Shown here piece by piece: positions 15,601 through 64,000 of a stretch of 64,000 bases of DNA; the first letter of the stretch is position 1; the number at the start of each line of letters is the position of its first letter. The position numbers and the translations under genes are program-made. The DNA is from Protoeuglena noctilucae (lineage: Eukaryota). The stretch is taken from assembly GCA_958009085.1 (NCBI GenBank), contig OY253668.1, forward strand, positions 62,001 through 126,000. Reading direction: 5' to 3'. The notes below the pieces were generated by a model that saw only the letters and a program-made list of their open reading frames with translations, was not told the origin of the DNA and searched no databases.

Positions 15601-18600
15601 CAGCGCGCGAGCAAGGCCATCGACCATCTGCCCGTCCTCATGCTGCAGCCCTTCTGGATGGGCGTGGTGGAGCGGGGGATGGCGGTACCCGATGCCGACC
15701 CCGCCCTCTGCCGCGCAATGGGGGTGGGGGCGGCCACGCTCCCGGCCCCGGGCGCCGCCGCTGTGGTATCGAAGGGCCATTTGCGCGCATTGGGCGGCGG
15801 CATGGGATCGGCCAGGCAGCTGCGGGGGCGGCTGCCGGGCAACGGCTGCCTGGGGTCGGCCCATGTCGATGCGGACTCCCTCACCTGCGTACTGTGCGCG
15901 TATCGCGCAAACAGCCTCGACGCCCTCGCGCAGCACGTCCGGTCAGTGCCGCACGAAACGCTCGCTCTGGCGGCGGCGGGCGACGTCAGATGGGAGGTGT
16001 CGTGGGGGGAGGGGGGGGGGGAGGGGGGCGCTTGCCGAGCCGGCTTCGCACGTGTTTGGGTGCAAACTCTGTTCCGATTGGTGGCCGCCGCGGTCGGTGG
16101 ATGTGGGGGTGGTGGCGCGGCACCTGGGGGGGGAATCGCACCGGCGCATGGCGCAAGTGCAGTGGGTGCTGGAGGTGAGGGAGATGGGGCGAAAGGGAGT
16201 GGTAGGGGAAAGGGTGCGAGAAAGGGTATTAGAAGTGGTATGAGAGGGGCACTGGCGTTTGGCGCAGGTGCAGTGGATGGTCGAGGTGAGGGAGATGGCA
16301 TGGCGTATGGTAATTGGTGGGAGTCTGGCTAGTCAAGCTAAGAATTCTTATTACCACAACACTTAAACACACACGTGCACACACAGACACCCCTGCCCCT
16401 TTGCACCCCCACCCCCACACCCCCACCCCCCCATCTCCCTCCACCCCAGACCCGCCCCGTTCTCCGCCCCATCCTCCCCCCCCACTTCTTCACTGCCCCC
16501 AACCACGACCTCCTCTCCTGGCCCCACCCCATCCACGACCAGCGCACCACCCGATCCCTCGCCCACTGCCACGCGTGCGGACAGGACGTGCCCATCGCAG
16601 ATGCCTTGGCTCACGTCGCCGACCCATCGCACGCCGCCGTGCTTGCGGCAGCAACGGCGACGCCCGACACAGAGCCGGCGCCCGTCATGCGAGCGTCGCG
16701 GGACCTTTCCGGAAACCCCGCGACCGCGCTGCACTGCGTTATTTGTCAGCTCCACATCTGCTACCTCCCGGATGCAAACAATGAGGCGGTGGTGGGGGCG
16801 TGGCAAGGGCACTGCGATAGCGACTACCACCAGCACTGCCTCTCGGGAGCCAACAGCAAGGACCTTGTCGATTCGGCGCCCTGGGGACCTCCTTATGAGG
16901 ACGTGGATGAGGCGATGGCGAGGGTGGTGGAGCGGCTGCCCGTGGCGGCGCTGGGGGTGCGGGTGAGGGGCGATGCGGGGGTGTGGCTAGAAGGGAGTTA
17001 GAGTGGGGTTGAGGAGGGAGTGGGAGTGAATGGAGTATATTGTGAGTGTGAGTAGCGACAGCTGAGGAGTTCTGTGGCAGTTAACGCTTCCTGCTCGTGT
17101 GTTGGCTGCTTGCCCCACGCAACCCATCCCACTCCACCCCACCCTTTGCATCGCACCCCATCCCTGCACCCAACCCACCCAACCCACCCCACCCCCTCTC
17201 CCTTCTCCCCCCAGCTTCCCGACTCCACCCCTCCCTTCCTCGACCCCCGCCCCTTCATCAGCCTGGCAGGGCCGGGCGTGGTGGCCGGGCCCAATGCAAA
17301 CACCTCGCGATGCGCGCTGTGCGTGGGGTCCACGTCCGTCACCAACCAGGATCCCACCAGGTGAAATGAGAACGTGCTTTGCATGTAACACTGATACCTT
17401 TGCTGCCATTCTTAGTACTTACTACTATCCGACTGTCATGAGCCAGGACCCCTAGAGGTGAGACGATGAGAGCGCACGGTGCATGTGGCACTGTTACATG
17501 TGCTGCCACCCGCACTGCCACTGCCACCCTCCCTGCCATTCTCACCCCCACCCCCCCCCTCCCCCTCCCCCCCCCCAGTCACGCCTGTTTCGAGGACCAC
17601 ATGTTCCGCGTCAGGAACCTGCTGAGCCTTCTGGAAGACAACTGGCGTGTCCTAACCGCCAACTGCGCCCTCCCCAACGCCGCCCTCTCCCACCCGCAAC
17701 CCAACCCCCAAGACCCCAACGCTTTCGCCTGTTTCCAATGCATGCGGGTGTTCAACAACCGCGCATTGCTCGTCAGTCACCTGGCGGGGGGCGCGAGGGG
17801 CGGCGCGAGGTGCCGGCAGCTGGCGCGGGCGCTGGCGCAGCACGGGCGCAAGGGCGGGGAGGGGCCTGACTCAGCGGTGGTGTCTGCGGTGAAGGGAATG
17901 TACGAGAATCTGCAGGGCGCGACGGCCAAGGCGGCTGCGGAGGACATGCCCTTTGTGAGGGGGCCCAGGCGGCTCATGTCCCGGCGTGTGAAGAGGGAGG
18001 GGGACGGTGAGGGGTGATGGGTGGGGGAGTGGGTGGCGGGTTTTGAGATAAGGGGATTGGGGTGGGGGTGCCTGATCGCGTGTCGCAAGTTGCGTATTGC
18101 TTGTCGCATATCGTACGTATCACATGCAGCACGTTGCATGTGTGGGGTGCCGTCACACACTACTCCCATCCCTCCCACAACCCCTTTTGTTGCCACCCCC
18201 ACCCCTCTTCCACAACCCCTCCCACCCCTCCCCTTTCCCCAGGCGTGGTGTTTACCTGCCTGCTCTGCCAGAAGACCATGGTGTGCAAGGGCCATTACAC
18301 ATACCTCACCAACCACTGGTGAGACGCTCGTGTCAGTAAATGACTGTGCTGTCTTATGCATCTATAATGATGGATCTCACGATATGTTACTCACTTTCTG
18401 GATCTTTTCATTAATCTCTTAACATATCACTTCACATAGCATCTCACAATCTCCCTCCCCTCCCACCCCCCCGCAGCCTCAGCCCCGGCCACTGCGCCGC
18501 CGTCGCCGCCCGCCTGGCTTCCTTCAAAGACAACATTGGCACGGACGCCGACCCAGGCCCCACCGCCGCCGCCATCGCCGCCCAATCCACCACCTACGCC

Positions 18601-22216: not shown

Positions 22217-22416
22217 NNNNNNNNNNNNNNNNNNNNNNNNNNNNNNNNNNNNNNNNNNNNNNNNNNNNNNNNNNNNNNNNNNNNNNNNNNNNNNNNNNNN
22301 NNNNNNNNNNNNNNNNNNNNNNNNNNNNNNNNNNNNNNNNNNNNNNNNNNNNNNNNNNNNNNNNNNNNNNNNNNNNNNNNNNNNNNNNNNNNNNNNNNNN
22401 NNNNNNNNNNNNNNNN
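22217..22416. other. Assembly gap (200 N)
   Basis: Run of N. Confidence 1.
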
Positions 22417-26130: not shown

Positions 26131-26349
26131 CGTTTGGGAATGTCAGATACACTCGGGGGGGATGATGGGAGGGGCCAGGGGTTGGGCGGTGGGTGGTGGC
26201 AGGGCAGGGTTGGGAGTTGGGGTGGCGTGCGCGGTGGCGTTGTGATGGATTTGAAAATCCCGACGCGTTGCATGGCAGGGGACTAGGCTGACTCACAGCA
26301 ACCGCGGCCCTGGGTTGCGGAATTCAAGTCGCGAAAGCGGCGCTTATTG

Positions 26350-27807
26350 CTACCCAGCCCCCAATTCATCAGCAAAAGGTCGCTCATTGCTAGGTCGCTC
26401 ATCGCTACCCAGCTCCCATTCCATAAGCAACAGATCGCTGCTCCGTTCGTAGCAGAACAGATGAGGGACGCGCCAGACGTCCAACACACGACCCACGAAA
26501 GGGACAGCGGCACCCTTGTCTCTACCACCACCAGCCACGTCGCCACCACCACCCATGTTGCCACCCACGCCACCCTCGGACCCCCTACCCCTGTCCCCGT
26601 CTGCCCCGCATCCGTCGCTGCTACTCCCACACACTCCCACTCCACCCCCACTGCCAGTGCCACTGCCACCCCTCCTCTCCCGGCCAACCCCACCCTCGTC
26701 GTCACCGCTTGACGTGTCCCATCCACCCCCACTCATACCGCCCCAGCCTCCCCGACCGTCGCAAATGCGCACGTGGGTCAGTAGGTGCTCCAGAGCCGGG
26801 GCATGCGCGCGCATCTCTGATGTGGTAAAGACCTCCCGTCGCTCCACTGCCACCAGCACCCTCACATGGTCGCCCCTGCAGCAGCACAGGGCAGGGCAGG
26901 TGTGAGTGCTGCCGCAACAGTCATGAGTCACAGGAAGACACAGCGCCGGGGTTGCGTTACAAGCGCCGCCCCGCACCTCTCCCGCGCGCGTCTCGCCACG
27001 CCCTTCGCCACCCGCACCCATGCAGACGTCAAGTCGTCCTGGTAAGCGCAGTCCGCAGCCACCACCCAATCGAACTCCCGACACGCGATGGCATCCCCGC
27101 ACCCCGCGACCCAGTCCAGCTCAGCCACCTCCGCCGTCCCCGCGCGCCCGCCGCTCCACCGCGCCATCGCCTCCACCGCAGCCACGTTGCCCGGCCGCGC
27201 AAGGTTTTGCTGCAGGTTGCCGAGCACGCAGTCGTGCCCGTGGCACGCGGCGCCCGCGGCCCTCGCGTCTTTTCGGCAGGTGCACCGGTCCGTGGCAAGC
27301 ACGCGCGCCCCGCTCGCCGCCAGCGCCATCGTCGTCAGCCCCGTCCCCGCGCCCAGCTCCAGCACGCGCCGGCCCTCGAAGCGCCCGCGGTGGGACAGCG
27401 CGAAGTCGCCGCAGAGCAGCCCGCCGCGCCAGAGCTGCAGGCCCACGTCCCGGATCGCAGATCGCGACTGGTGACGCAGCGCGAGACGCGCCACCAGGCG
27501 AGGGGGCTCAGCCGGGGGCTCCGGGTCGCGCCTCCGCCTCCGCTTGCGCCCGCGAGGAGAGTCGGACCCGCTGGACCCTCCGGCGTCGTCGGCTGGCGAC
27601 GCGCGGCCGGACCGCAATGGCAGCGTCGCCGCGACGCGCGTCTCCATCATTTTGACCGAGCCGCCCGGCACCGGGGCGCTAGCGAGCATGTGGAACTCAC
27701 TCACGACGAGTCCTGGGGATATACAGGAAGTCGTGGCCCGGTTAAAAGGCCCAGAGGTCCCAAGATGGGATTTATTGGAACGTTGAAAACTCGCCTGGGT
27801 CATCCAT
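26350..27807 (-). CDS. METTL22-like lysine methyltransferase (Methyltransf_16 family)
   Basis: VVSEFH, DVGLQLWRGGLLCGDF, SAM motif I VLELGAGTG, VAELDW, VAADCAYQDDLT, LVAVERREVF and C-terminal VPHLFCYERS. The tentative first exon MDDP uses a GC donor at 27794. Confidence 0.8.
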
Positions 27808-28165: not shown

Positions 28166-30456
28166 TCACTCGCGCGGCGACTCCCCCTCGCGCCCGGACA
28201 TCACGCACCCACTGTGTACGATAGTCCCGCCGTCGCAGAACAGCGCGTCGTCCTTGCAGTCGGTAATCTCCACGCCTCGCAGCTCCGCCCGCCCGCCATT
28301 GACACAACACACCCCACAGCCCACCCTGCTCCCTGAGATGCGGCCCCCACGAACAATCACCCTGCTGCCAGTCCTACTGATGAACACGCCATTGAGCTGG
28401 CAGTCCGCAACCTCCACGTCCCACAGCTCCGCCTGAGCCCCATGTTGGCAAGCCAACCCATGAAGATTTTTGGACCTCACAATGCGCCCCCCCTGCACCA
28501 ACAGCTTGCTGCCCTTGTCTGAAACGGCAACACAGCAATCTCTGCAATCAGCGACCTCCACGCCCAGCACCTCCGCCTGCCCGCCATCGGTGCAACACAC
28601 CCCACAGCCCTCCCTGCTCCCTAAGATTCGGCTCCCACGCACAACCGCCTTGCTGCCATTCCCGGCGATGCACACGCCCATGATCTGGCAGTCCGCAACC
28701 TCCACGTCCCGCAGCTCCACCCGCCCGCCATCTTGGCAAATCACCCCGTAAAGCTCCTGGACTCCAAAAATGCGCCCCCCCTGCACCATCACCTTGGTGC
28801 CATCGCCACGAGCCACCACACCGTACTGCTTATGGTCGGCGATCTCCACGTCCCGCAGCTCCACCCGCCCGCCATCTTGGCAAATCACCCCGTAAAGCTC
28901 CTGGACTCCAAAAATGCGCCCCCCCTGCACCATCACCTTGGTGCCATCGCCACGAGCCACCACACCGTACTGCTTATGGTCGGCGATCTCCACGTCCCGC
29001 ACCTCCAACCGCGCGCCCGCTTCGCAGGAAACCCCGACACGCCCATGAAGCCCCGCGATACGTCCCCCTTGCACGGCCACCTTGCTGCCCTTGTCTCTGA
29101 CGACAACGCCGCAGTCATCGCAGTCCGCGATCTCTACGTCTCGCAGCTCTACCTGCCCGCCCTCTTTGCAAGTCACCCCGTGACCCTCCTGGGACCCCGC
29201 AATGCGCCCCCCCTGCACGATCACCTGGCTGCCATTGTTCGAAATAAAAACGCCGCCTTGCTTACAATCGGCGACCTCCACGTCCCGGAGCACCATGCGC
29301 CCCCCCTCCTTGCAAGCCACCCCGTGTTTTGAACCCGCGATCCGTCCCCCCTGCACGACCACCGCGCTGCCACGATCTTCCACCACCAGCCCAATCCCAG
29401 CTGTCTCCATCACGTGTGTGTCGACGAGCGTCACTTGCCCCCGACCGCAGCAGAAGACGCCTGCCCCCACCACACGCACGCCCTCCAGGCGCAGCTTCGC
29501 TCCCCCCGTAACGGCGAACGCGAACTCATTCGTGGACGACGCGCCAGCCAGTCGCACCGTCCCGTTCCGCACCGTCGCCTCCACTCTCGCACACACCACC
29601 ACTGCCACGCTCGGCAGCACACCTCCCTGGCCCCCAGGTCCACCACGTCCCCCCTCTCCACCGCCAACAACACCTCGGCCCCCGTCCACACCTTCACCTC
29701 CCCGCCACTTCCCGAGGCAGCCGCCAGCCTCACCGCCAACCTGTCCGCTGCCCGCACCCTCGCCTCAACGTCCGCCCACTCCAGCCCCGCACGCCCCAGC
29801 CCCGCCCTCCCCGCCACCGCCTCCCACGCCGCCCTCCGCCGCACCTCGCTTGGCTGCCCCAGCACGTGCACCAGCGCCACCCACCACCGCTCCTCCGCCC
29901 GCTCCCATCCCTGCCCGCCCGCCCCCGCCTCCGCCTCCGCCCCACGCGCGCTGCCCCCGCTGTCCCCCACGCCCACGCCCGCCAGCCCCCGCGCGACCCT
30001 CTCCACGCCCGCGCACTGCTCCCTGCGCACAGCCACACCACCACACCATCGTATCGACACCTCCACCCACGCCCCGCGACCCGCCGCAGCACTGTCCATG
30101 CCCGCAAGCCCCCACAGTGTCCAACCGGCCCACATGACGGCCCCCGACAGCGCCGCCGCTGGCCCTCGCCTGCTCTCGCTCGGCGCCCTCAGCATCTCCG
30201 CCGCGCTCGTCCGCTCTCCCGGTCGCTGCCTGGCCCGGCCCAGCGACTCGCCCACTTCCAGCTCGCTCTCCGCGATCACCCGATCCCCCCCTACGCCGCC
30301 TCCGCCTCCTCCGTCCCCGTCCCGTGCGCTTGCATGCGTGCCCTCCCCACCCATGCTCTGCGGGCGGTCCGCCAAGGCATCGCTCGTTTCCCACACATGC
30401 CGATGGTATGAATACATCCCGCCGCATCTCAACACACCCCTCTCCTGCGCTTGCAA
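28166..30456 (-). CDS. Right-handed beta-helix repeat protein, paralog 2, with N-terminal helical region; 1-nt frameshift near 29620; start uncertain
   Basis: About 8 copies of the same 48-aa repeat as 1700-3015. The upstream frame (VLLAVERGDVVDLGAREV) aligns with LIRALARGGTIALDGGEV of paralog 1. Confidence 0.75.
28700..29001. repeat. Perfect 144-bp tandem duplication (about 2.1 copies) within the beta-helix CDS
   Basis: Identical units begin at 28700, 28844 and 28988. Confidence 0.9.
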
Positions 30457-31081: not shown

Positions 31082-34000
31082 CTATCGCTTCTTCTTCGTC
31101 CCGCCCTTGACCTTGCCGCCGTACTTGCGTGCGTGCTTGCGGCGCTGAATTTGCTTCAGCCGCGCCGCCACCGGCAGGACCTTTTTCTTCTCCTTCTCGC
31201 GATTGGACGACCCGCCTGCGATGCAAGAGCACATCGGGGTCGAGTCTGCCTCCTCCTACATTGTCCCCCTCTCCCTCATCCACCTGTCTCATGCCTCCCC
31301 CCACTATCACCATCATCCACCTCTCTCATGCCCCCCTCCCACCACACCACCGCCACCGCGGTCCCTCACCCGTCTTCTTCTTGTGCCTCCCTGACGCCGC
31401 CCCGAACTCCCCCCTGCCCTCGCGCCCCTTCTCCACGCTCGCCAGCCGCTCCTCCTTGGTCATCCGCCGCTTCACCCGCGCCTCCAGGTCCTCCGCGCGC
31501 ACCCGCCTCTCGGCCAGCCGCTCGGGCGCCATGCGCAACAGCCGCTCGAGCTCGTCGTCGTTCTCTGCCGCCACCTCCGACGCTGAGGGAGAGGGAAGAG
31601 AGGAGAGGTAAGTGAGGATTGCGGAGGGAAGCGGTGGGCGAGTGTGGGCGAGCGGGTGAGGGAGAGCAAGCAGTGGGTGAGGAAGAGTGTTCAGCTCTTC
31701 AACGCCACTCCCTCGCCCCCGTCGTGCCCCCATGGGAAGCTCAGCTGAGCTCACCTGCCCTCTTCTTGGCGGACGTCATGCCGTGCTTGGCCATCGCCTC
31801 CTGCACCACCCGGCGGTTCTGGAGCTTGCGGATCGCGGCGAAGTCCGCGTCCGTCAGAATGCGGCCCCACTCAATCGGCACACCCTCCGCCAGACCGGCG
31901 CCACCGTCTCCAACGCTGCCGCCCCCGCCGTCGCCAGCCCCACTGCCACCGCCGCCCCCGTCGCCCGCACCTGCGGACCCCTTCCCCGCGTCCCCCGCCC
32001 CTTCCTTCTTCTTTTTCGCCTCCGCCAGTCGCCGCTTCAGATCCGCAATCGAGTCTGCCTTGGGCGGCACTCGTGCCCCCGCTGACCCATGCGTCTCCGA
32101 CCGCACCCCTGCGCCTTCCTCGTCGTCACTACGGTCACCGTCACCGTCGCTGCTCCCCTCCCCGTCGCTGCCGCCACTCCCATCCTCACCCTCACCCTCG
32201 CTCTCATCACTCTCATCGCTCCCCGACCCCACGTCCGCTTCGCCCTCACTGGCCCCCTCGGTCCCCTGCCCATCGCTTTCCCCCGACTCCGAACCCTCTT
32301 CAGACCCCAACTCCAACTCCGACTCCTCTCCCCCCGACACATCCACTCCGTCGCTGCCCTCCCCCTCATCGCCGCTCTCACCACCCTCGCTCTCGCCCTC
32401 GCCGCCGCCGCCGCGTTCACTCGGCACCCCACCCTCGCCCCCTGCACCCTCGGCCCCCTCGTCGCTACCCCCCTCATCATCGCCATCATCATCCTCGTCA
32501 TCATCGTCGCTGTCGATATCTTCTGGTCGCAATCCCTTCCGCAGCGCAGCCTCTAGCAAGTCCGCCCCCGGCACGCGCTCCGCCGCCCGCCCCACCCCAG
32601 ACCCGAACTCCCCCAGCCGCCGCTCCTTGTCGTGGCCCCGGCCGCGGTCTTTCTTCTCCAGCATCCCAGGGTCCAGCTCACGGAAGAGGCCGATCAGACC
32701 ACGAGCAGCCGCGCCGACCTGGGTGGGTGGAATGTGAGGGGTGGCGATGACGCGGGGAGGGGCAGGGAGGGGTGGCGATGGGGGGAGGGTGGGGTGCATG
32801 TGGTGCAGGGAGTGGCAGGAAGGAGAGGGGCGAGGGTGAGTGGGGAAGTAACGGGGTTCCTCTCCGCCCAACTCACCTGCTTGTTTTACTCTTGCACCTG
32901 ACTCTCCCCTTAGCTCACCTGCTTATCTCGGTACTTCTTGTACTGCACGAGGTCCCTCAGCAGGTCCTCCTCCATCACCAAGGGCTGCCGCAAGCAGAGT
33001 TCACGCACTGCGACGGGATGGGCGAGAGTGGTCGTTACAGGTGGAGTAACAATGCCACTGCTGTTCCATAACTTGCTGTTAATTGCTGTCATTGGATAGT
33101 ATCAAACTACGGATGGCATGGTGCAACCATGAGTCCGCCTTACCCACCCACTCTCCCGTCTCGATGTCAATCACAACAGCCCAGTCCCATACCGCATCAC
33201 CCCCACCACCCCCACCCACTCGCCCGTCTTGACCAGACCACAACAGCCCCGTCCTACGCCCCACCAACCCCCACCCAATCACCTGTCTTAAGCCCGACCG
33301 TCATGACCTCGGGCCGCGCCTTGTCGTGCACGAAGTTGTCGACCAGCTGCCGGAGAACGGGCGCCAGGATGTCCGGCGGCACGAGGCTGTGCACGGCCTG
33401 CACCAGCGCCGCCAGCACCTGCGTCGCCTCCCGCTGGTGCGGCATCAGGTACTGCGAGGAGTGGTAATTGAACCAAGTTGTGGCAATTGAGTCTGATGAG
33501 ACAAATGAGAGTGATGAGAGAGACGGTCACAGAATCTCATGAGACACTCAGGCACTGCAATCGAGGACAGTCGAGCCTCATAGGGCGATATCTCTGCTGA
33601 GGCAATAGGCAGACAGGCAAACATCCCTGGTGACGCGGGGCAGGGCTCCTCGCCTTTTGCATGAAGGGATAGAAGCTGAGCACGAGGAGCTGGTGGGCCC
33701 CGATGCACCGCGACACGACCTGCATGAGGGCCAGCCGCGTCTCGAATCGCTCGGTGGCCTTGCGGAGTCTGGCGAAGAGCTTCTCAGCGAACGCCTGGGG
33801 GTCGTGGAGGAGGTCCAGGGCAGCGAACGAGTGCTGCGTGGAGCCCTGGGAAGACGGCGGGGCGCAACAGGGTCAGGGCGGTGCCGGAGTGTTTTGCGGA
33901 GTGCTGACGGCTGAGCTGGGGTGGGCAGTGGGTGGGAAGTGGGGCTGGGTTATCGATTGCAGCGGTGGGTGCGCGTGAGAGGCGTGGCAGGGCACGAGGC

Positions 34001-41384: not shown

Positions 41385-44300
41385 ATGCTGAGGCTTGCGG
41401 CCGTTGCGGTGGGCATGGCGCTCGCAGGCGGGGCACTGGCCCAGACCAGCGTCCCGCCTGCCACGGCGAGCCCCAGCCCCACCAGCCCACCCACCCCGAC
41501 ACCCAGCCCGGTGCCGTCCCTAACCCTGCCCCAATTCACCGTCACCTCGCAAGCAAACACTCAGGCAGGCATACTTCGCGCAAGCAGCTTCCCAGGCACA
41601 GCCATTGCGTATGCTGCCACGGCTAACATTGCATCACTTGCCGCACGTGAAGCGCCCCGCACTTGACACCAACACTGCATTGGCATGCCCCTGCCTGCAG
41701 CCCGGTGCCCTGGCGGGGATCATGGCGGGAACGACATCCGCCGCCCAAGCCCAAGCAGGTGCGAGAGCAGCATGTGTGTGTGCAACTGCTGGCGCCCCTT
41801 GCAACGTCGCACACGCAACCTGACCCGACCCTTCTGACTCGCTCCCAGCCTTCATCCGAGCTGCCATTTACTGCCGTCCCGTGGACAAGGACACGCTCCA
41901 TTCTCAGGACACGCCGTACCTGTACAAATTCCTCGACAGCTTCGACCTCCCGTATGTCCCCAGCACCGTCGACGCCAGCCTGGGACCCTGGCCGCTATAC
42001 CAGGGGCCCGACAGCATCCTGTGGTGCCAGTTGTGGAACTGCAGCAGCTCCACGGGCGGGTGCAACTGTGAGTGGGCTTGGCGCCAGCGTCGCAGTGGCC
42101 GGGGTTGAACCGATGCGGATGTGGGGGGGAGTGCTTGTCATGAATGGGTGGCAGTGGAGTCGATGGGCTTGGTGAAGGGTTAACATGTCGAGTTGACAGG
42201 CATCCACATGATGACGTCGTGTCTTATCGTCACCCGCAGCGGTGGTGGCGTGGGCGCCCAACCCCACGTATGGGGACTACCTCATAGGGTCCTCCCTCCT
42301 GGCGTTGAGGGACTTCCAGGGCACCGACAGCATCACGGCACAGTTCTGGCAGGGCACAACCCAGACTGCCCAGGCGGTCCTCTCGTGTCCCCAGGCGAGG
42401 GGCGAGAAGCAAAGCACGATGCGAGGTTCTCGTCACGCAGTGGGGTCGCCCTATGGGTCACCCTATGCAAGCTTAGTACACGGCCCTCGCACCACTCGTT
42501 CCTTTTTTGCTCGTTCACACGTGCACTGCCCCTCTGCGCCCCTCCTCTGCACCAACACCTGGGCCGCCTGCCTGGTGCGTGGGATCTGTACCCACGCCTG
42601 CCACCAGCACCTCCCCGCAGTGCCACACGGTTGCGGACCAGGCGGCCGGCACCCCGCCCGTGTGGGCCAACGCCACTGCCAGTGACTTTGTGCTGGGAGG
42701 CAGCGCCTCACAGCCCGTGCCGCCCCTGGGACCGGTTCCCCCACCTGGCCCCACCACCGCGCCAACGTCACCCGCATCGCCACCCTCACCGCCATCGACA
42801 CTCACCCCGTCTCCTTCCTCCCCAACGGCGACCCAAACGCCCTCGCCCACGCCTCCGCCACCGTTGCCCTCAACCCCAGCTGCCACGTCCACCACCGCCC
42901 CCTCTTCCTCCACACCGCCACCCCCGCCAACGTCGTCTCCACCTAGCGACACTGCGGCTCCCACGCAGGCTCCCTCAGCACCCTCCTCACCATCCACCAG
43001 CCCCAGCACGGTCACCTCATCGTCCCCTTCCCCAACTGACACCTCCCCGTCCCCCACCGCGCCCCCATCGCCACCCCCAAGCGCCACGGCACCACCCACG
43101 TCCAACGGAGGCGCAGGTCCCACAGGCGCCACGTCCCCTCCGCCCCCCAGCCTCCCAACCAGCACCACACCCGCTGCACCGTCGCCTGGGTCCCCGACTG
43201 CCCCACCTGCCCCTGCTGTGGGAGATACGACCCCCGCGCCCCAGCTCTTGGCCACACCGACGCCGTCAAGCTCAGGGGGCGCCCTCCTGAGCCCAGGCGT
43301 CACAGACCCCACCCCCACGGGCGCACCGGGGTCGGCGGGTGGCCCCAGTGCACCCCCACAGGCCCAGACAGGCACGCCGACTAGCCCATCGTCGACGCCC
43401 AGCCAGTCTCCGCATGCCACCGGCCCCGTATCTGACCTTGGTCCGGGTGCCGCCCAGGGAGGGCTGCAGAGCGGAGCAGGGGGCGGCGTGGGCACCGGCG
43501 ACTTGGGCGGGGTCCCACAGGCGACTCCTCGCGATGTGCGCCGCCCCCACGGCATGTGGGGTGCCGTGGCGGGCGCGGCGGGGTCTGGGGTGGCCGCGGT
43601 GGTCGTCACGCTGCTTGCGCTCGTCTGCGGGGCGCTGGCGCTCGTGGGGCTGTTCCTGCTCGTCGGGGCGTGCATGCGAGGGTCCCGCCGCGGCAAGGAC
43701 ATGCGCATCGACATGCTGGCCGAGGTGACGGGTGACGCCGCTTTGATAGTCACACACTGTATGGACATGCGAGCACCCCAGTTGCACGTTCATATACTAC
43801 CCTGCCCATGCTCGACACGCTTATCACCCTCTCTGATCACCCCCACCGCAGTTCCACCCCCTCTGGGAGCCCATGCTCGAGACCCTGCGCCAGCAGCAGC
43901 AGCGCCGCAACCCTCGCCCACTCGTGCCTCCCCGGGACACCACTGTCCCCCTGCCAATGTCCGAGGTGACACTTCAATGTCAGCTGCTGAACCCTGTGCC
44001 ACCCATTGTACACCACCTGCCTTGGCATGTTGGAAAGGAGCGTCCTGTGCCCTGAGCTGCCATGCGCCATGCATACCGTCCCTATCGTGCAGTAAACCTC
44101 ACTGTACACCTCTGTCTTGCAGGCCATCATCCGAGGACTGGACTTCACGTTCCCCAGGAGGACCACGGGCCCTGATGCTGGTGCCAGCGGGGCTGTGCCA
44201 GCGCAACTGCCAAATGCCACGCCCCCGCGCGGCCGGGGCGACGGCCCCGGGGACCCCGCGCCTCCCTCGGCGCGCCGCGAGCAGCCGGAGGCGTCAAGGA

Positions 44301-44461
44301 AGTCGGGGGGCAGAGCGGGCGACAGCCGTAGAGGTGCAGTGCAAAGCTCGTCTCTGAGGGGGAGGGATGGGGGGGCGGGAGGGGGCGGGGTGGCTGAGGC
44401 GGGGGCGGGCGGGCAGCCGCGGAGGGGGTCTTGGTGGTGGCTGTCCCGATTTGATAGATAG
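41385..44461 (+). CDS. Secreted/type I membrane Ser/Thr/Pro-rich (mucin/HRGP-like) glycoprotein
   Basis: Signal peptide MLRLAAVAVGMALAGGALA-Q, a Cys/Trp-containing N-terminal domain, a long S/T/P stalk (~42700-43420), a TM helix (VAAVVVTLLALVCGALALVGLFLLVGA) and a cytosolic tail. Confidence 0.7.
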
Positions 44462-45015
44462 GAGGGGTCGGAAATGCAAGCAAGGGGCGGTGACTGTTGT
44501 GTCAACCCCAGCTGTCATGAGTCGTGCCAGCATCCACCACAACGCTCCATGTTCCCTTGGCTGGCCATGAGAGTTTGTCGGCTACGGCTGGCTAGCTCCC
44601 CCAGTTGATTTTCAAACAGCACGCGTCACTTTGCAAACGGGAGCGCAAACACGTCGCACCTAGGAGCCCAGGAGCACCGAACGCGGCTAGGGATCGAACC
44701 GAGAACGGCCCATTCAGCAGCACCGCGTAACCCAGGGACCCCTCATAAGAGCAAGATGCCACTGTTGCCCAGTCGCCCAGGCTACAGCCCCGCGCTACAA
44801 CAAACAATTAGCCCACAGGCCCTGGCACGGGCCTTCTGTCGAACCCCCCATCCACCATACCCAAGACACCTTGACCCACCCACCAACCATGGTGCCACCC
44901 TGTTAATGGGCACAGCACCTATCCCCCCCCACACGCCACACCCCCGCCCACTACCTCCGCACCCTGAGACTACCCCCCAGTCCCCTTCCAACTCCCCTTT
45001 AATATATACCCCCCT

Positions 45016-46086
45016 TCACCTCCCCTGCCCCACGAGCCTCTGGGCCAGGTCGAGTTCCACCTTCACCCGGTCCAGGCGCTTGGCGGGGATGCGCGTGGTG
45101 GCCCCGAACGAGTTGTAGTGGCCGGCGAGGGCGTTGACGGCCGAGTAGAGGTTCGAGAAGGACGGCTTGCCGGCGAAGCGGTCGTCGCGGCGGTAGCGGG
45201 CCACCCACTGCGGGGGAGGGAGATGGTGGGTGGGTGGCATGAATGTGTGATGGCGGAGTAATGAGTAGCGGGCCACCCACTGTGGGGGAGGGCAGGCGGT
45301 GGGTGGAATGAATGCGTGATGGGCAGTGTGATGCGCAGCGAGGCGCTGAATATCATCTGGCAGACTGACTGCCACCCTCCACCACAGTTTCGTGCGCCCC
45401 AGTCCCACCCTAACCTGGTTTGTCACCCTGCTGGCACTACGTCACCATTGCATCCACCCCCACCACTCTCCTTCTCACCTGGTTGATCTGCTTGCGCAGC
45501 TCTACCACCTTCTCCTCCAGGGCGGGGTCGTCCAGGGGCCTGGCCAGCACGTCGTTGGACATGGCGATGAGCTTGGATGTCGAAGACACGTACTCCTCCT
45601 GCGAGTCATGATCATAACCATAGTCATTGGCTTGGTGTGGCAGAGCTGCTGAAATTGCTTGTTACTACAGATACAGCTTTTGGATCCCGTTCGCTGCCCC
45701 CTGCTTCGCCTGGTCCTGCTTCCTGCTTCCCCCATCCACCCACCCAACTCACCTGGTCCTGCTTGGCTCCGTCCACCCACCCAGCCAACCTGGCCCTGCT
45801 TGCCACCACCATCCACCCACCCAGCTCACCTGGTCCTGCTTGCCACCGTCGAAGAAGCCCGCGTGGGCGGGGCGCACGTTCAGGACCGCGGCGCTGACGG
45901 CGGCGCTGATGAGGGACGCCGCGTGGCGGCGAGAGAGGGGCTCCGCGCGGGCGACGACCCCGCTGCGGCGCGCCCCCGGCGCCTGGGAGCACCTGCATGG
46001 GCGGAAGAGGGGACGCAGTTCGGGCGACTTCCACGGCGTCCGCCGAGCCAGTCCGGCGCAGCTGCAACTGCCTGAGCAGCAGACAT
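45016..46086 (-). CDS. psb27: Photosystem II assembly/repair protein Psb27, lumen-targeted (N-terminus uncertain)
   Basis: Twin-arginine signal SRRHAASLI...AHA, then EEYV...LRKQINQ|WVARYRR...GKPSFSNLYSAVNALAGHYNSFG...IPAKRLDRV..EL. Confidence 0.92.
45697..45850 (-). repeat. About four ~40-bp tandem copies of the psb27 exon-end/donor junction
   Basis: (C)AAGCAGGACCAG|GTGAG.TGGGTGGGTGGA recurs with variants. Confidence 0.85.
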
Positions 46087-46872
46087 GTGTCAGAAAGCCA
46101 ACGGAGCCCGGGAGGGGCGGCAAGGGAGGCGCGCCGCGGAGGGGAGGGCAGGCGATTGACTCATGCGCCCCAGGCCTCCCCTGCGCGGTGGGGGGAGCCT
46201 GCCGCTGTGCGCATGGCACGATGGGGACAGGATGACGAACAAAGAACGGTGAGCAAATATGCCTGCCCCATGGGGCTCGCTGCGCCGCGCTACAGCGGGC
46301 AAGGCAGAGGTGGCACAAACCCGGGCCGTTCCCGCCCCAACGCGCGCCTCCGCGTCGGCGAGTAGCAAGACCGCTTCCGGGACAGTCGCGCATGTACAGA
46401 TCGCGCGAGTTCAGGGACCGCATCGAGAGAAAACGCGCCCAGCCCGTCCCGGCCACATCGATCCGGGGAGCGTCGGGGGGCGTTGCAAGGCGCATCTGGG
46501 CGGCGCGAGACGTGTACTTTGTCGACGACCAGCCATCGCGGCGCGGGAGCAGTCCCCTAGCTCACCCGGCGGGGCTCCGGGCGACCACAACGGCCGATGC
46601 TGACGCCATCTGGGTCGCTGAACTCGACAGATGGGGTGAACGAAGAGTACTGGCGATAATGTCGAGAGTACTGCCGCCCGAGGCCACCAGCAGGAGCTGA
46701 AGCACTCGAACAGACATCTATCTTCTGGCAAGACGCCACGCTGCCCGGAACTGGCCTGCTGAGAGACTTCCTAACCACCAGTGTTTCTCCTGGACGCGAT
46801 CGTGAGGCTGGGGGATCCATCGGTGGCATCAGCGCGGCAATAGCGTGGACTGACGGGGGGCTGCTCGAGCCC

Positions 46873-48752
46873 ATGCATCCGCTCCTGGCGTCGGCCGCTG
46901 CGCCGAGCCATGTTTGCGTAGGGAGGTCATGTGGGAGGGGAGCGCTCCTGGCACCTGCGCTTCTTCGCTTGGGACAGCCACACTCCGCGACGGTGCGATA
47001 CTCGCGCTGCGCATGCATCCTGGGACGGGTTTCGTCACAACAACTCCATCGCCGACACAAGCGCTATCACGGAACGATTCTCTGTGCAGGGAACCGGAGC
47101 GCTGCGCCCGGCGCCTCGCCGGGTCCGCGCAACAGCGGGCGAGGGCGCGGACGAGGCGCCCCAGCCGGACGGCGCGTCCTCCGCGGTGGATGAGGTCGCG
47201 GAGTTCCGCGAGGATGATGTTCTTCCGGATTCGCTAGAGGACTCCATCTCGCAGGCCGCGACGGTGCGCCGCGGCGCCCCCGTGACGCCTCGCTTGCGCC
47301 AGCGTCCGCTCCCTTCGCTCCCCGATCCCCTGCTCCGCCTCGCTGCCCCCCGCAGGCGTGCGCGGAGGCCATTCGCGCAGGTTGCACGCGCTGCATCGTG
47401 GAGATCCTGGTCCCCGAGTTCTGGGACCCCGTCAGCGGCGCGGTGTTCAAGGACGAGGGAGACCAGCAGCGGTGGTGGCGACTCACGCGTCGATTCCTCG
47501 ACGACCTGTTGCAAGAGATGCCGGGACGCAGGGCGCGTGTGCTGTACCCGGACATGGGCGTCGCGGCGATGCTGGCAAACGAGTGGCAGGACCGCGTGTT
47601 TGACGTGTCGGCCATGACAGGTGCGCCACTGGCACTGGCACTGGCACCGGCACTGCCAGAGTGCAGGGGGTGGCCTGAAAGATGCCCAGATTGTCGACTG
47701 CGGCCGGGCAGGGCTGCATGGGAGGAGGGTGCCGTGGTGGTCGTGTGGTCGTGGTGGGTGTCGGTCCCCAGCTCGCTCCTGCTGACAGGCTGTGCTGCAC
47801 CCTCGCGTGCCTGCACCCGCAGACCGTCGGGCGGTTCAAGAGGACGACGACCTCATCTTCCTGGCTGCCCCCGACCCCCCCACGCTCGACGACTGCCGGC
47901 GCTCGGAGCGTGATGCGGGGCCCACGCGCCCGGTGGTGATGTTCAACCCAAGGCTCACGTCGGGGGACGTCGGGGCCGGTCTCAGCATGCGTCGCCTGCG
48001 GTGAGCCACGCCGCCTGGCGCCTTGGGGTTGTTTCATATCTCTAGGGGACTTGTCATTGCCCGTGCCCTCGCCTTCAGTCGCACATGCCTCTTTCCCAGT
48101 GCCCAAGTCCCTTCCCTCGCCAGTGCCCCCCCTCCCACCACCTATCCTATGCCCTTCCACTCCATTCCATCCTCGCAGTGAGCAGTTCCTGGGCCCCTTC
48201 CAGGTCGTCTACTCCATCTGCCCCGTCGGTGACGTGGGGTCCGTCTTCCGGAGGTACGGCCAGCCGTGGAAGGTCTTTGTCGAGGACACAGAGACGCCAG
48301 GGAGGTACCGACTCGCAGCCCAGGTGGGTGGGGTGTGGGTAGCAGTGTGGGTGGGGGTGTTGGTGCGGGTGTGGGTGTGGGTGTTGGTGTGGGTGTGGGT
48401 GTTGGTGCGGGTGTGGGGGTGTGGGTGGGGGTAGCAGTGTGGGTGTGGGCGTGGGTGTGGGTCTTTCTGTCCTTCCACTCCCTGTCGCTGCTATCAGTGC
48501 GACCCGTACTTTCACATTACTGCACCTTGCACACCATCGTGCACCCCATGACACCCCACTCACCTTCGCCTGCCATGACGCCCACAGAGGGACACGCGGC
48601 CATCTGGTGAGGACCTCGACCGCATTGTGACGGAAGCGCTGGGGATGGCGCCGACTGCGGAGGAGGAAGGGGGCGCGGGGGGCATCGCGGTGGCCCTGGC
48701 GAGTGCCATGCGTGAGATGCAGCGGTTCATGCGGCAGATCCAGGGAGTGTGA
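46873..48752 (+). CDS. DUF1995-domain chloroplast protein (start tentative)
   Basis: LPDSLEDSISQA, IVEILVPE, EGDQQRWW, YPDMGVAAML, DRRAV, RPVVMFNPRLTSGDVG.G...RRLR, FL..FQVVYS, VFRRY..PWKVF...PGRYRLA. Confidence 0.85.
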
Positions 48753-58695: not shown

Positions 58696-61371
58696 ATGTC
58701 CCTCTTCGCAGCGCGCGGCGCTTGCGCCCCCTGCGCCTCCGGGCGCGACTCGGCGGGGACCCGGTCGACGCGCCACCCCCAGGCCCGCCCGGTGCGCGGG
58801 CGCAGCACGCGCGCGATGGCGCAGACGCAAGTGAAGGTGGCGACCGACCTCAGTGCCTCGACGGCCAAGCAGGCGCTCGCTCACCTGCAAAACATCTCGG
58901 GATCCGGAAGCAGTGAGTCGGGGGGTCGGTGTGCCGAGGCGGGGCGCGCTCCCCGCCTCCTGCGCGTCGCGATGGTCGGGATAACGATTGCTCTTTCTGC
59001 TGGACGCGCGGGGGGAGGGGTCCCGGCGGATTTTGCCACCAAATCGCGCGGCTTTTATCTCGGCCCCCTTGCACCCCGCGGCCGGCGCCTTCCGCGGCCC
59101 AGAGCACGCCCCAGCGTTCGCGTCCCTTATTGCGAACGCGTGCGCGTGGGCTCCGCCACTGCGCGCCCCGGCCCGGGGCCCTCCCGGGAGGGAGGGGGTC
59201 TCGCGGTGCCCGTGCGCGCTCCCCTGGCCCCGGGGCAAGGTTCCGTGGCAATTACGCCGCGTTAGAAAGCGATCGATCTCTCTCTCTCCCCCTTCCCGGC
59301 CCCGGGACGCGCCCCGTCGCGCTCTGCACTTGGGTCGACCTCCCTGGGCCGATTCCGGGGCGCGGGGAGCTTGACCCGGCCATCCTGCGCCCGTAGCGCA
59401 TTTCATTTGCCGCGAATTGCCCCTTCTCGCCCTTTCCTTGCGCTCTGGGGCCCCGAGCGCGTCGGAGCTCCCGGCCCGAGTTCTCGCGATCCGCGCTTTT
59501 TCGCCCGCGAGGGTGCGCGAGGGGTCGCCCGTCGCGTCCCATCCCTTTCTCGCTGTCGCCTGTGCGGCCTGGGGGCGCACAGGGCCGGGCGACAGGGCGC
59601 GGATCGCTTGCCGTGGTAGAGACCAGGTTCTAGCCCCCACCCGCGCTGGAGCTCGGCGAGCGCCGTGCCCGGCGACGTTTCCCCCCTCCCTCGCTCGCTG
59701 TGATCGCTAGCTAGCCTCTGGCGCGGGGCGGGGCTCGGCGAGCGACTGGGGGCACCCCTGGTCCCGGTCTCGAGTGCGCCGCCTCCTGCAGGGTACCTGA
59801 ACGCGGACAAGCAGAAGTGCATCATCTCCATCGGCCTGACGATCCACTCGTGCCCCGTGGAGGTCCGGGAGAAGATGGCGGTCCCGGAGGCGAGCGGCGC
59901 GCGGCGTCTTACCTCATGCGGCCGGGCAACCCTGTCGCGCCTCCCCTCACCCCGCCCCGCGCGCCCCCGCAGGCCGAGTGGCCGCGCGCGATCGCGGAGC
60001 TCACGTCCTTCCCGCACATCGAGGAGGCGGCGGTGCTCTCGACGTGCAACCGTATGGAGGTCTACGTGGTGGCGCGTGCGTTCCACTCGGGTGTACGCGA
60101 GGTAGAGGAATGGATGAGCGCCACGTCGGGCATCGCCCTCGAGGAGCTCAGGTGCGACGCCGCCCGATCGACCGCGTGTCGGCCGACGGTCCCGCGAAGT
60201 CGCCATGTACAAGCGGCGATGGCTGTGCAGTTCAGAGTGCCTGCTCTGCCCCCCTCACGGCCACCACCTCACACCCTCCCCCCGCAGGCCGTACCTCTTC
60301 CTGCTACGCGACTCGGACGCGACGGCGCACCTGCTGCGCGTGGCGGCGGGCCTCGACTCGCTGGTGATGGGCGAGGGGCAGATCCTGGCCCAGGTTAAGG
60401 CCGTATACCTGTCCGGCCAGGACAGCACCGGGTTCGGGCGCCACCTCAACGGCCTCTTCAAGCAGGCCATCACGGCGGGCAAGCGCGTGCGCGCCGAGAC
60501 GTCCATCTCGACCGGCAGCGTGTCGGTGTCGTCGGCCGCGGCCGAGCTGGTGCAGCTCAAGCTCCCCACGCACATCTTTGACGACGCGCGCGTGTGCATC
60601 ATCGGCGCTGGCAAGATGGCCAAGCTCCTCGTCAAGCACCTCGCCTCCAAGGGCTGCAAGCGCCTGACGATCGTCAACCGCTCCCTCCCCCGGGCCGAGG
60701 CGCTCCGCGACGAGTTCCCCGAGGTCCACATGGACCTGCGCCTCACGCCCGACCTCATGGCGTGCTGCGCCGAGTCGGACGTCATCTTCGCGGCTTCCGG
60801 GTCCGAGGAGATCCTCGTGCACGCCGAGGACGCGGCCAAGCTCCCCCGGTGCCCCGCGGTGGTGGGCGGCGTGCGGCGGTGGGTGGACATCTCCGTGCCG
60901 CGCAACATCGCCCGCGAGGTGGGGGCGGTCGAGGGCGAGAAGGTCTTCAACGTCGACGACCTGAAGGAGGTGGTGGCGGCCAACAAGGAGGCGCGGGCGC
61001 AGGCGGCGGCCGAGGCCGAGGTGCTCCTGCGGGAGGAGCAGCGTGCGTTTGAGGGGTGGTGGGACTCGCTGGAGACGGTGCCGACGATCAAAGCGCTGCG
61101 GACCAAGGCGGAGGACATCCGCGTGGCCGCGCTCGAGCAGGCCATGCGCCACCTGGGCGACGGCCTGACCAAGAAGCAGCAGAAGGCCGTTGAGGAGCTC
61201 TCGCGCGGCATCGTCAACAAGCTCCTGCACGGGCCCATGGCGGCGCTGCGCTCGGACGGCGCCGACGCGGCCCAGGTCGCCCAGACGCTCCAGAACATGG
61301 AGGCGCTCGACCGCATGTTCGGCCTGGCCGAGATCAAGGCGCGCGACGCCATGGCCAAGGCGCGCAACTGA
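58696..61371 (+). CDS. hemA: Glutamyl-tRNA reductase, chloroplast precursor; exons 58696-58912, 59792-59889, 59973-60151, 60288-61371
   Basis: [27 protein letters not shown], catalytic [67 protein letters not shown]. Confidence 0.97.
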
Positions 61372-61990: not shown

Positions 61991-64000
61991 TCACAGCTTG
62001 ATGGTGGCGAGCGTGGGCCGCGTGCTGGTGCCGAACCGCGTCCCCTCCTCCGCCTTGTAGCGCACCTTGGCCGTGTCCATCAGGTGCACGTCTGCGAGGG
62101 AGATGGTGATGGTGTGGTGACAGCTGGTGACAGCTAAGTGACCAGGGTCCATTGAGTGCAATTAAGAGGCAGCAGTGACAGATATGTTGGACTGAGCAGT
62201 GCCCATCAAATGCACGTCTGCGGGGGAGATGACACCATGACATCGCGCACCCTCGTTGCCCCAACCCCACCCCTCATCACCACCCCTCATCAACCCCACC
62301 CCACACGACATCTACTACCCCTCATCACCACCCCATCCTAACAACCCTCACCGTACGACCCCGGCCCCGGCACCGGCCCAGGGTCCGCCAGGTTCTGGAA
62401 GGCGCGCCCCATGTACACGCCCTTGTCGCGCGCGCCAAACCCGAACGTGCTGCGGGGACGGCTGGGGTCCTTCCCGCCCTTCGGGCCCAGCGTGCTCGGC
62501 TGCGGGGGGCGAGGGGAGACCCTGGGTGATGTCAGGGGTGACGAGAGGGAGTTGACCAGAGTTGACCAGGCAACACGTTTGCAGCTTAGGTGCGAAGCAT
62601 CAATGCGGGCAGGTCGGTGCCGGTGCTTTGCTCTCATGACTGCCAGTACTGCTCTCCTGCCAGCAAGGTTGCTGATCTGAACAGCCCCATTCGCCTTGCC
62701 CCAGTCCTTGCGCCCCTCACCTTGCCTCGTTGCTCACACACAGCCCCCCTCACCTTGCCTCGCTACTCATGCCCATCCCCCTTCACCTCGCCTTGTTGCA
62801 TATGCCCATCCCCCCTCACCTTGCTCAGGTCCCCCGGCTTGTACTTGGGTCCCGGGGAGTGCATCCCACGCTTCTCGGACAGAGCGTGGCCGGGCGACAG
62901 GTACTGGACAATGGTGCGGGTCTGCGGGTGAGAGAGAGGAGGTGAGTTGTGTCAGGTACTGCACAATTGTGCGGGTCTGCGGGGTCAAGGTGGGAGGAGG
63001 TGACATATGTGAAGTATTGGACTGTGGTGCGGGTCTGCGGGGTGAGTGGGGGAGGCGACATGTGCCAGATGAGGCAAGGGCGGCAGGGCGCCAGTCTGTG
63101 ATATGGGGTGGCGGGGTGTGCAGAACGCAGCTCATCGCCACCTAACACCCACCCATGCCCCTTGCCTTCACCCCCATGCTTACTACCACCATCACCCACC
63201 ATGCTCTCTACCACCCTCACCCACCACCACCCATCCACCACCCCTCACCTTCACCCCCATGCTCGCCCCCTTCACCATCGCCCGCGCCCTCCTCGCCGCC
63301 GCCTCATCCCCCGGCGACAGCGGCCGCCCCCTTGACGACCCCGTCCTGCCCAATTCAGACCCCATCGATGCTCCGAAAGACTCCGGGGACGATAGGGAAG
63401 GGTAGTTGGCGCCCGGTCCGGGGCTGGGGGTGGGGTGCACGAAGGAGAGGCGGTCCTTACAGTAACCGAACGTGCCGATCCGCTTCTGCGGGAGATGGGG
63501 GAGGAGGGTACAGATATGTGAGATCCGGTGCTCTTGTGCAAGTGAGGGGGAGAGAGAGAGAGGAGGGTTGACATTAGAGTTTTGGTGCTTTCATGCAGGT
63601 GAGGTGACTCATAAACATGTCGACAAGCAGACAAAACAGACATGTGCACCATCACTGTCATGACCGCGACCATCGCCAGGCAGACATACAGACGTATACA
63701 CAGTCAATGTAATTAATACCAAGTCACCAACCCACCCCCTCCACTCGCCTGCGTGGGGCTCTGTGCCCGCACGGGGGAGGGCGCCCGCACGGTGGTGGGG
63801 ATGCGGTAGTGGTTGGGGCCGGGGGCGTCGGGGTCTACTTTGGCCTCGCGGGGGTTGCGGAACTGGGGAGATGAGAGAGAGGGGCTATGTTTGTATAGCT
63901 ATGGGGTGATAGATCTGCAGAGAGAGGGAGGGAGGGGTCCACCCTGGCCTCGCGGGGGTTGCGGAACTGCAAAGGGAGGGAGGGAGGGAGGGGTGTGTGG
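61991..64000 (-). CDS. ODF3/SHIPPO-like sperm-tail PG-rich repeat (flagellar) protein; 5'-partial
   Basis: Repeated PGP-x-x-Y motifs (APGPNHY, PGPGANY, SPGPKY, PGPGSY) with FG-x-x-x-R motifs (FGFGAR, FGTSTR). Confidence 0.7.
62690..62832 (-). repeat. About 32-bp minisatellite made of the donor junction GCAAG|GTGAGGGGG
   Basis: Four CCCCTCACCTTGC-like units on the plus strand; the last is the inferred donor. Confidence 0.8.
62901..63068 (-). repeat. Three ~56-bp tandem copies of an acceptor junction
   Basis: Units GTA.TG.AC...GTGCGGGTCTGCGGG begin at 62901, 62956 and 63014. Confidence 0.85.

Follow-up and report, generated by a model that had tools for sequence, protein, structure and literature searches.

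Two introns of the psb27 gene carry tandem copies of their own splice junctions, and the same arrangement recurs in other genes of the window, as we call the whole 64,000-nt (64-kb) stretch of DNA analysed here. The reading we prefer, at a probability of roughly 0.78, is local tandem duplication of the minisatellite type at intron ends, with the outermost unit lying across the exon-intron boundary and the added units leaving silent pseudo-sites within the intron.

Results

The psb27 gene and its introns

The gene was read from the sequence on the minus strand. In a Pfam profile search its exon 4 matched PF13326 (Psb27) at 66.2 bits, against a curated cut-off of 25 (E = 5e-18), and exon 3 matched the same family weakly (E = 0.15); relatives of psb27 were also recovered by tblastn. 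Exon 1 (46566..46609, minus strand, as are all features of the gene; ATG at 46609-46607) is 44 nt long and ends in phase 2. It was placed from the sequence and its junction is predicted, as is intron 1 (45993..46565; 573 nt, GTGAGC..CAG), which has the same position and phase as an intron in the related locus L001. Exon 2 (45830..45992), which would encode the transit peptide and the start of the mature protein, is covered by RNA contigs of runs X10 (record 9, 45829-45989) and X11 (record 14, 45829-45980). The limits of the two following introns are fixed exactly by RNA joints: intron 2 (45599..45829; 231 nt) by the joint 45597->45829 (cut +1, hence 45598->45830), found in one contig each of X10 and X11, and intron 3 (45208..45478; 271 nt) by the joint 45207->45479, found in both runs. 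Between them lies exon 3 (45479..45598; 120 nt, 40 codons), supported by RNA contigs and by the weak PF13326 match, and the coding part of exon 4 (45016..45207; stop at 45018-45016) is defined by RNA contigs together with its own match to the family. An RNA contig of the third run, X9, ends at window position 44597, where 21 loose T residues follow on the plus strand; they would represent the poly(A) tail of a transcript from the minus strand, possibly marking the 3' end of psb27 about 420 nt past the stop.

Tandem copies of splice junctions in psb27

The preliminary description of this DNA had placed about four copies of the exon end and donor within 45697-45850, and a donor-side tandem array holding four copies of the exon 2 end and its donor does occupy 45705..45850 (minus strand). 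A 17-nt pattern consisting of 12 nt of exon end and 5 nt of donor (GTGAG), searched with three mismatches or fewer allowed, gave four matches, all within 45705-45841 on the minus strand, and the earlier coordinates were right to within a few bases. These matches carry 0, 3, 0 and 2 mismatches, and the first of the two perfect copies, at 45825-45841, is the authentic intron 2 donor. By chance 0.17 matches would be expected, and four were reached in none of 100 shuffles. The copies are spaced 40, 37 and 43 nt apart, in agreement with the two repeats called by TRF, at 45721-45847 (period 37, 3.4 copies, 78% matches) and 45732-45847 (period 40, 3.0 copies, 82% matches). Inward from the real cut (45830/29, GTGAGC) there are thus three further sites, all on the minus strand: pseudo-donor 2 (45790/89, GTTGGC), pseudo-donor 3 (45753/52, GTGAGT, in the context CAG/GTGAGT) and pseudo-donor 4 (45710/09, GCGAAG). 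Alignment of the units shows 12-15 exon bases and the donor repeated head to tail. Copies 1 and 3 are the closest pair (42 nt at 93%, offset 77) and, because these two are the most alike, the sequences suggest that duplication took place at least twice, a block of two units being copied the second time. The three extra units make up about 120 nt of intron 2.

At the other side of exon 3, intron 3 ends in a tandem duplication (45193..45335, minus strand) of two units of about 72 nt. The used acceptor, 45208/45207, belongs to the outer unit (about 45193-45264), and the inner unit (about 45265-45335) holds an intact pseudo-acceptor, 45280/45279, 72 nt upstream. An acceptor with exon start had been reported twice here, and an 18-nt pattern consisting of CAG and the first 15 nt of exon 4 has exactly two exact copies, at 45193-45210 and 45265-45282; the chance mean is 0.18, and two matches occurred in two of 100 shuffles when three mismatches or fewer were allowed. 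The units align head to tail, and their likeness stops exactly at the 15th exon base. Within the inner copy the exon-derived part is identical at 15 of 15 positions, whereas identity in the intronic part falls to about 80%. The extra unit makes up 72 nt of intron 3. In both introns, therefore, the duplicated units confirm that each copy comprises exon sequence as well as a splice-like site. Intron 1, by comparison, contains no junction copies: the best inner match is 13/20 for its donor and 14/20 for its acceptor, and the fraction of its internal windows that are repeated is 0.00. An RNA hairpin at the psb27 acceptors, in which C-rich tracts would pair with the exon-start copies, was considered and rejected as weak (149 nt folded, z = -2.04, equalled by 7 of 200 shuffles).

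Junction-straddling arrays in other genes of the window

Eight junction-straddling arrays, four donor-side and four acceptor-side, were found in four genes of the 64-kb window, namely psb27, g5, g6 and g7. The minus-strand gene g5 (62-64 kb) gave no Pfam match; its product has PGP-rich repeats, which we take to be reminiscent of sperm-tail PG-rich repeat proteins. Its donor array (62713..62824, minus strand) consists of 3.4 copies of a 33-nt unit according to TRF, and the used donor, fixed by the RNA joint 62499->62820, is the first (62820/62819; inner match 17/20). A TRF array at an acceptor of the same gene (62898..63061, minus strand; 58 nt, 2.9 copies) repeats the acceptor with about 24 nt of exon start, and here the used site is the last (62922/62921; inner match 19/20). 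The exon at this acceptor is 102 nt long, which equals the 'side' value of an X11 RNA joint. Two single acceptor copies complete the set in g5, both on the minus strand. Within 62073..62231 the acceptor and about 21 exon nt (62073-62105) recur 126 nt upstream at 62199-62231 (19/20), at an intron supported by the RNA joint 62091->62352; within 63830..63969 the acceptor and about 33 exon nt (63830-63865) recur 104 nt upstream at 63934-63969, the exon being predicted from the reading frame only and the intron extending beyond the end of the window. One RNA contig (60463-62091) runs from the 3' part of a plus-strand glutamyl-tRNA reductase gene into spliced exons of g5. The 3' untranslated regions of these convergent genes probably overlap or abut, or else the contig merges two transcripts.

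The remaining two arrays lie in predicted gene models. In the zinc-finger-like gene g6 (16138..16298, plus strand) about 36 nt of exon end followed by GTGAGG recur 111 nt downstream, within the predicted intron 16175-16449 (18/20). In the SDA1-like gene g7 (33143..33300, minus strand), near which an SDA1_HEAT match lies, the used cut in the model (33283/33282) is followed at +58 and +126 by two decayed copies in which GC and GA stand for GT (17/20), and TRF reported a repeat at 33143-33275.

Across the arrays the unit is 33-126 nt long, and 8 to about 36 nt of this are exon sequence, the smaller part in every case. The donor units of all four genes are rich in G runs. The exon-derived part of the inner copies has also diverged, to about 75-93% identity in most (counted by eye), and some inner donors have lost their GT, as in GCGAAG, listed with GTTGGC in psb27, and in the GC and GA of g7. 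Array-bearing introns measure 231-354 nt, as against 83-151 nt for the eight RNA-supported introns that have no repeats. Arrays of similar unit size that are wholly intronic lie at 10371-10458, 31276-31349, 62260-62327 and 63168-63260, while five further repeat loci (1397-1524, 13937-14258, 18807-19045, 20434-20885 and 26341-26439) were left out of the counts as they have no gene models.

The window as a whole is rich in GC, with a content of 0.58-0.75 in 2-kb steps. TRF returned 100 rows at a score of at least 50 in the 64 kb, mostly with G-rich or C-rich units (CCACCC, GGGTGG), and introns seem to be rich in G towards the donor and in C towards the acceptor. Duplication also affects coding sequence. 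At 28257-29325 (minus strand) a long open frame contains more than four copies of a 144-nt tandem repeat (48 residues), two units of which (28700-29017) are 98% identical; it looks like a repeated beta-helix-type module, and the neighbouring frame 1703-2917 matches Beta_helix. On the plus strand about 30 nt of the end of a DUF3337-type frame, stop included, are present at 608-636 and again 134 nt downstream at 742-773, a duplication that crosses the end of a coding sequence and not a splice junction. Two runs of exactly 200 N (5004-5203 and 22217-22416) are presumably scaffold gaps.

Integrity of the arrays and use of the splice sites

It could be argued that such repeats reflect an assembly artefact in which a repeat had been falsely expanded. 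A 12,422-nt contig from a different study (X1), however, matched 44000-48343 with 0 differences and 0 gaps, and a second X1 contig matched 58539-63915 equally well; both are short-read contigs of one other data set. In addition, the units have diverged from one another by 7-33% and could therefore be neither collapsed nor expanded as identical repeats would be, which makes false expansion very unlikely. With independent contigs identical over both regions, the attempt to dismiss the copies as artefacts fails; nothing was found in favour of this explanation, and we regard it as barely conceivable.

The preliminary description had proposed that the copies are decoy or alternative splice sites. 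That they are spare sites agrees with the RNA data; their alternative use does not. Among the joints listed, the psb27 contigs of X10 and X11 join the outermost donor and the outermost acceptor only, X9 giving no joint at this gene, and from the splicing of these contigs at the outermost sites it follows that the inner copies lie inside introns. The g5 joints 62499->62820 and 62091->62352 likewise use outer sites. It should be emphasized that contigs drop rare variants, such that minor use of inner sites would escape this evidence. In psb27, pseudo-donor 2 would add 40 nt and shift the frame, pseudo-donor 3 would add 77 nt and lead to a premature stop, and pseudo-donor 4 would add 120 nt, a length that is in frame although a stop lies inside. 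The inner acceptor, in contrast, would add 72 nt that are in frame and open, and its product would escape nonsense-mediated decay because this extension contains no stop. Use of the first g5 pseudo-donor would similarly add 33 nt, in frame and open. By hand count the inner sites are still canonical in 5/8 donors (GT) and 5/5 acceptors (CAG). Decay alone thus cannot explain the silence of the inner sites, since most of them remain canonical. A GC-AG intron (GCGAGC...CAG) is present at 59890-59972 (plus strand) in the glutamyl-tRNA reductase gene, where it is supported by RNA contigs of two runs, and in g5 another donor of this type (GCGAGT) was predicted at 63748. This organism may commonly use GC donors, a point relevant to the question of whether the GC-type pseudo-donor of psb27 at 45709 could still work.

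Junction overlap compared with chance

The overlap of repeats with splice junctions was assessed in a small sample of 18 introns of the window, 11 of them RNA-supported and three added for holding repeats; a crude exon map based on codon usage proved too noisy to yield gene models automatically and served as a guide only. An inner copy matching at least 16/20 was present at 7 of the 36 junctions (19%), and 501 of 3658 internal intron 20-mers (13.7%) were repeated, while dinucleotide shuffles of 15 introns gave no more than 0.4% repeated windows. The repeat reaches a junction in 7 of the 9 repeat-bearing introns, a tendency towards junctions that is not significant. The more pertinent null is one of placement, in which tandem duplications fall anywhere within or across a short intron and persist when the added unit can be removed by splicing. 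It was expressed as 2(L-1)/(I0+L-1), with L standing for the unit length and I0 for the length of the intron prior to duplication; among 11 classified arrays, 7 span a junction where 5.25 are expected (P = 0.196). The chance comparison raised by the preliminary description is therefore answered in two ways: for the 18 introns of the 64-kb window the overlap exceeds that in shuffled sequence, but it does not exceed that given by random placement of duplications in short introns. The duplications are intronic events that spill over the boundary and are not centred on it, a reading that follows from the exon share always being the smaller part of the unit. The junction-centred duplication of the preliminary description, set against an exon share of 8 to about 36 nt in units of 33-126 nt and a junction overlap at P = 0.20, is not upheld.

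Relatives of psb27

A metagenome scan with exon 4 yielded 10 loci out of 599 pattern matches, none close enough to date the duplications. Identity in the last exon is 79% for L001, the closest locus, in which intron 1 is shared and introns 2 and 3 are missing; a 57-nt intron lies there 10 codons upstream of the intron-3 position. L002 (59% in the last exon) has a single intron at a different position, L010 (69% in a stretch of 32 residues of the last exon) has introns at still other positions, and L003-L007 (52-54% in the last exon) are uninterrupted across residues 54-172. Introns 2 and 3 of psb27 are therefore common to no relative found. TRF detected no junction arrays in L001 and L002, loci of only 3-4 kb, and no link was found between the unshared intron positions and the repeats. 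L001 and the window also have a near pair of introns. The 57-nt intron of L001 (1836-1892, compared with window 45479-45508) is in phase 0 and precedes by 30 nt the intron-3 position of the window, at which L001 has no intron, and the window exon at L001's position reads AAG/GTGGTA; the pair may reflect either sliding or a loss combined with a gain.

Discussion

The arrays described here can be explained by ordinary processes acting at intron ends. Replication slippage or unequal exchange would duplicate segments of 33-126 nt and, where the outermost unit straddles the exon-intron boundary, each added unit would bring a few exon bases and a copy of the splice site into the intron. As long as the outermost donor or acceptor is chosen such a duplication would be harmless, because the extra unit is removed with the intron; mRNA and protein would stay unchanged and the duplication would be near-neutral. 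The net outcome would be a longer intron with a row of pseudo splice sites that later decay, and on this scheme the earlier lengths of psb27 introns 2 and 3 were about 111 and about 199 nt, which the duplications raised to 231 and 271 nt. The divergence of the inner copies and the loss of GT from some of them are as expected, since this sequence would be unselected. We infer the mutational mechanism, the near-neutrality and the silence of the inner sites at low levels, and likewise the cause of the preference for the outer site. The preliminary description had seen in the repeats a possible route to intron sliding, expansion or gain. Expansion is shown for both psb27 introns, while nothing ties the repeats to sliding or gain.

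Several other explanations have to be weighed against local, near-neutral duplication. A junction-directed process, in which the low-complexity G-rich 5' and C-rich 3' ends of introns, R-loops or structure-induced stalling start duplications more often at junctions than elsewhere and thereby drive intron growth and turnover in this lineage, would account for the presence of eight straddling arrays, spread over four genes, within a single 64-kb window and for repeats that reach a junction in seven of nine repeat-bearing introns, including all four classified ones of g5; the intron 2 and 3 positions of psb27, common to none of the relatives' loci fetched, point in the same direction. The 11 classified arrays, however, span junctions at a frequency compatible with random placement (7 against 5.25), junction 20-mers are repeated at 19% (7/36) against 13.7% internally, and the count is inflated by the three of 18 introns that were added for their repeats. 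Canonical G-quadruplex motifs, of which the window holds 121, overlap only 3 of the 8 arrays, and G-quadruplexes were rejected as the cause. We therefore consider a junction-directed origin unlikely. A broader proposition is that boundary-straddling minisatellites, at both ends of introns and far denser here than in the few human cases, reflect a mutational process that concentrates on intron ends, supplies most of the intron growth and feeds the rapid turnover of intron positions between psb27 and its relatives. It seems to us rather unlikely; if it were true, the genome would offer a natural collection of identical splice sites in competition, in which the outermost wins at 3' as well as 5' sites.

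The inner sites might instead be functional alternative sites, serving regulated unproductive splicing or, through the inner acceptor, a psb27 isoform longer by 24 residues. By sequence pseudo-donor 3 (CAG/GTGAGT) and the inner acceptor equal the real sites, the +72 product of psb27 and the +33 product of g5 are in frame and open, and pseudo-sites are used in the human IFI6 and CBS arrays (PMC1557585). Against this, the X10 and X11 contigs contain outer joints only, the other psb27 decoys lead to a frameshift or a stop, the copies decay like neutral sequence and unrelated genes show the same pattern, which together render a function of this kind quite improbable. Still less credit is due to the view that the repeats are footprints of intron birth, whether an exon segment containing AGGT was duplicated in tandem or an introner or some other element was inserted and duplicated its target site. 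The absence of psb27 introns 2 and 3 at those positions in L001, L002, L003-L007 and L010 would fit such a history, but by eye the 3' end of intron 2 is unlike the exon 2 end and the 5' end of intron 3 is unlike the exon 4 start, and the copies stand in tandem at one intron end and are not divided between both. Moreover, eight introns searched by BLAST against the 64-kb window found their own local copies only, plus one 39-nt match at 82%. As an account of the repeats intron birth is highly improbable and largely refuted, and local duplication spilling over the boundary remains the reading that we prefer.

Introners, known from Micromonas and other algae, are dispersed families of near-identical introns. 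The present case resembles them in that algal introns are not conserved between relatives, but differs in that the repeats are strictly local, none of the eight introns having a second copy within the 64-kb window. Intron gain by tandem duplication is a further point of comparison, and the potato RdRp gene is reportedly a case of it. In the Rogers model, tandem duplication of an exon segment with a proto-splice site gives rise to an intron (Lehmann et al. 2010, PMC2891723). Both there and here a local tandem duplication provides spare splice signals and new intronic sequence; in the Rogers model, however, duplication within an exon creates a new intron between the copies, whereas here an existing intron is extended. 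The signature of that model, intron ends homologous to the opposite exon flanks, is absent by eye from psb27 introns 2 and 3.

The closest parallels are human. Intron 7 of F7 contains a 37-bp minisatellite (VNTR) whose first unit lies across the exon 7 boundary, and of its identical donors the most upstream alone is used; the same article describes similar arrays in IFI6 (6-16), CBS, LMNB2 and PDGF, exclusive use of the most upstream donor in LMNB2 and PDGF as in F7, a 5'-to-3' preference among the identical F7 donors, and G triplets in the F7 units (PMC1557585). The psb27 array is alike in its head-to-tail units, the first of which holds the exon end and the authentic donor, in its unit size (37-40 nt, against 37 bp in F7) and in its G triplets, and the most upstream donor is the one used both at psb27 45830 and at g5 62820 (RNA contigs of X10 and X11). 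The psb27 donor array thus shares structural features of F7-type boundary minisatellites and, as far as contigs tell, the feature of the used site. There are also differences: units here have diverged (67-93% identity) whereas F7-type units are identical, copies number 2-4 here and 5-25 there, and the exon share is 8-36 nt compared with 4 bp in F7. Four of the arrays here are on the acceptor side, a type of which PMC1557585 gives no description, and some eight arrays are gathered in 64 kb of a marine alga. In human segmental duplications, variable tandem repeats at exon-intron boundaries change the extent of introns and can activate cryptic splice sites (PMC2812944); both transcript forms often occur there, whereas the contigs here contain one form.

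Less familiar are the acceptor-side counterpart and the density of the arrays in this genome. The literature searched, with subscription journals mostly outside its coverage, contained no report of junction-straddling arrays in algae and no comparable study of acceptor-side competition among duplicated sites. Taken singly, the arrays are ordinary, being neutral intron expansions of the type described in human genes, although they set a trap for annotation, as gene finders can take an inner copy and produce frameshifts. A specialist may find interest in how frequent they are, and in acceptors and donors being hit equally often. If this frequency holds genome-wide, the organism would offer a direct view of the contribution of tandem duplication to intron length, as well as hundreds of natural competition experiments on splice-site choice. 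Such experiments would be informative on the selection that a short-intron spliceosome makes among equivalent 5' sites, and among duplicated 3' sites that are complete with branch region, pyrimidine tract and AG.
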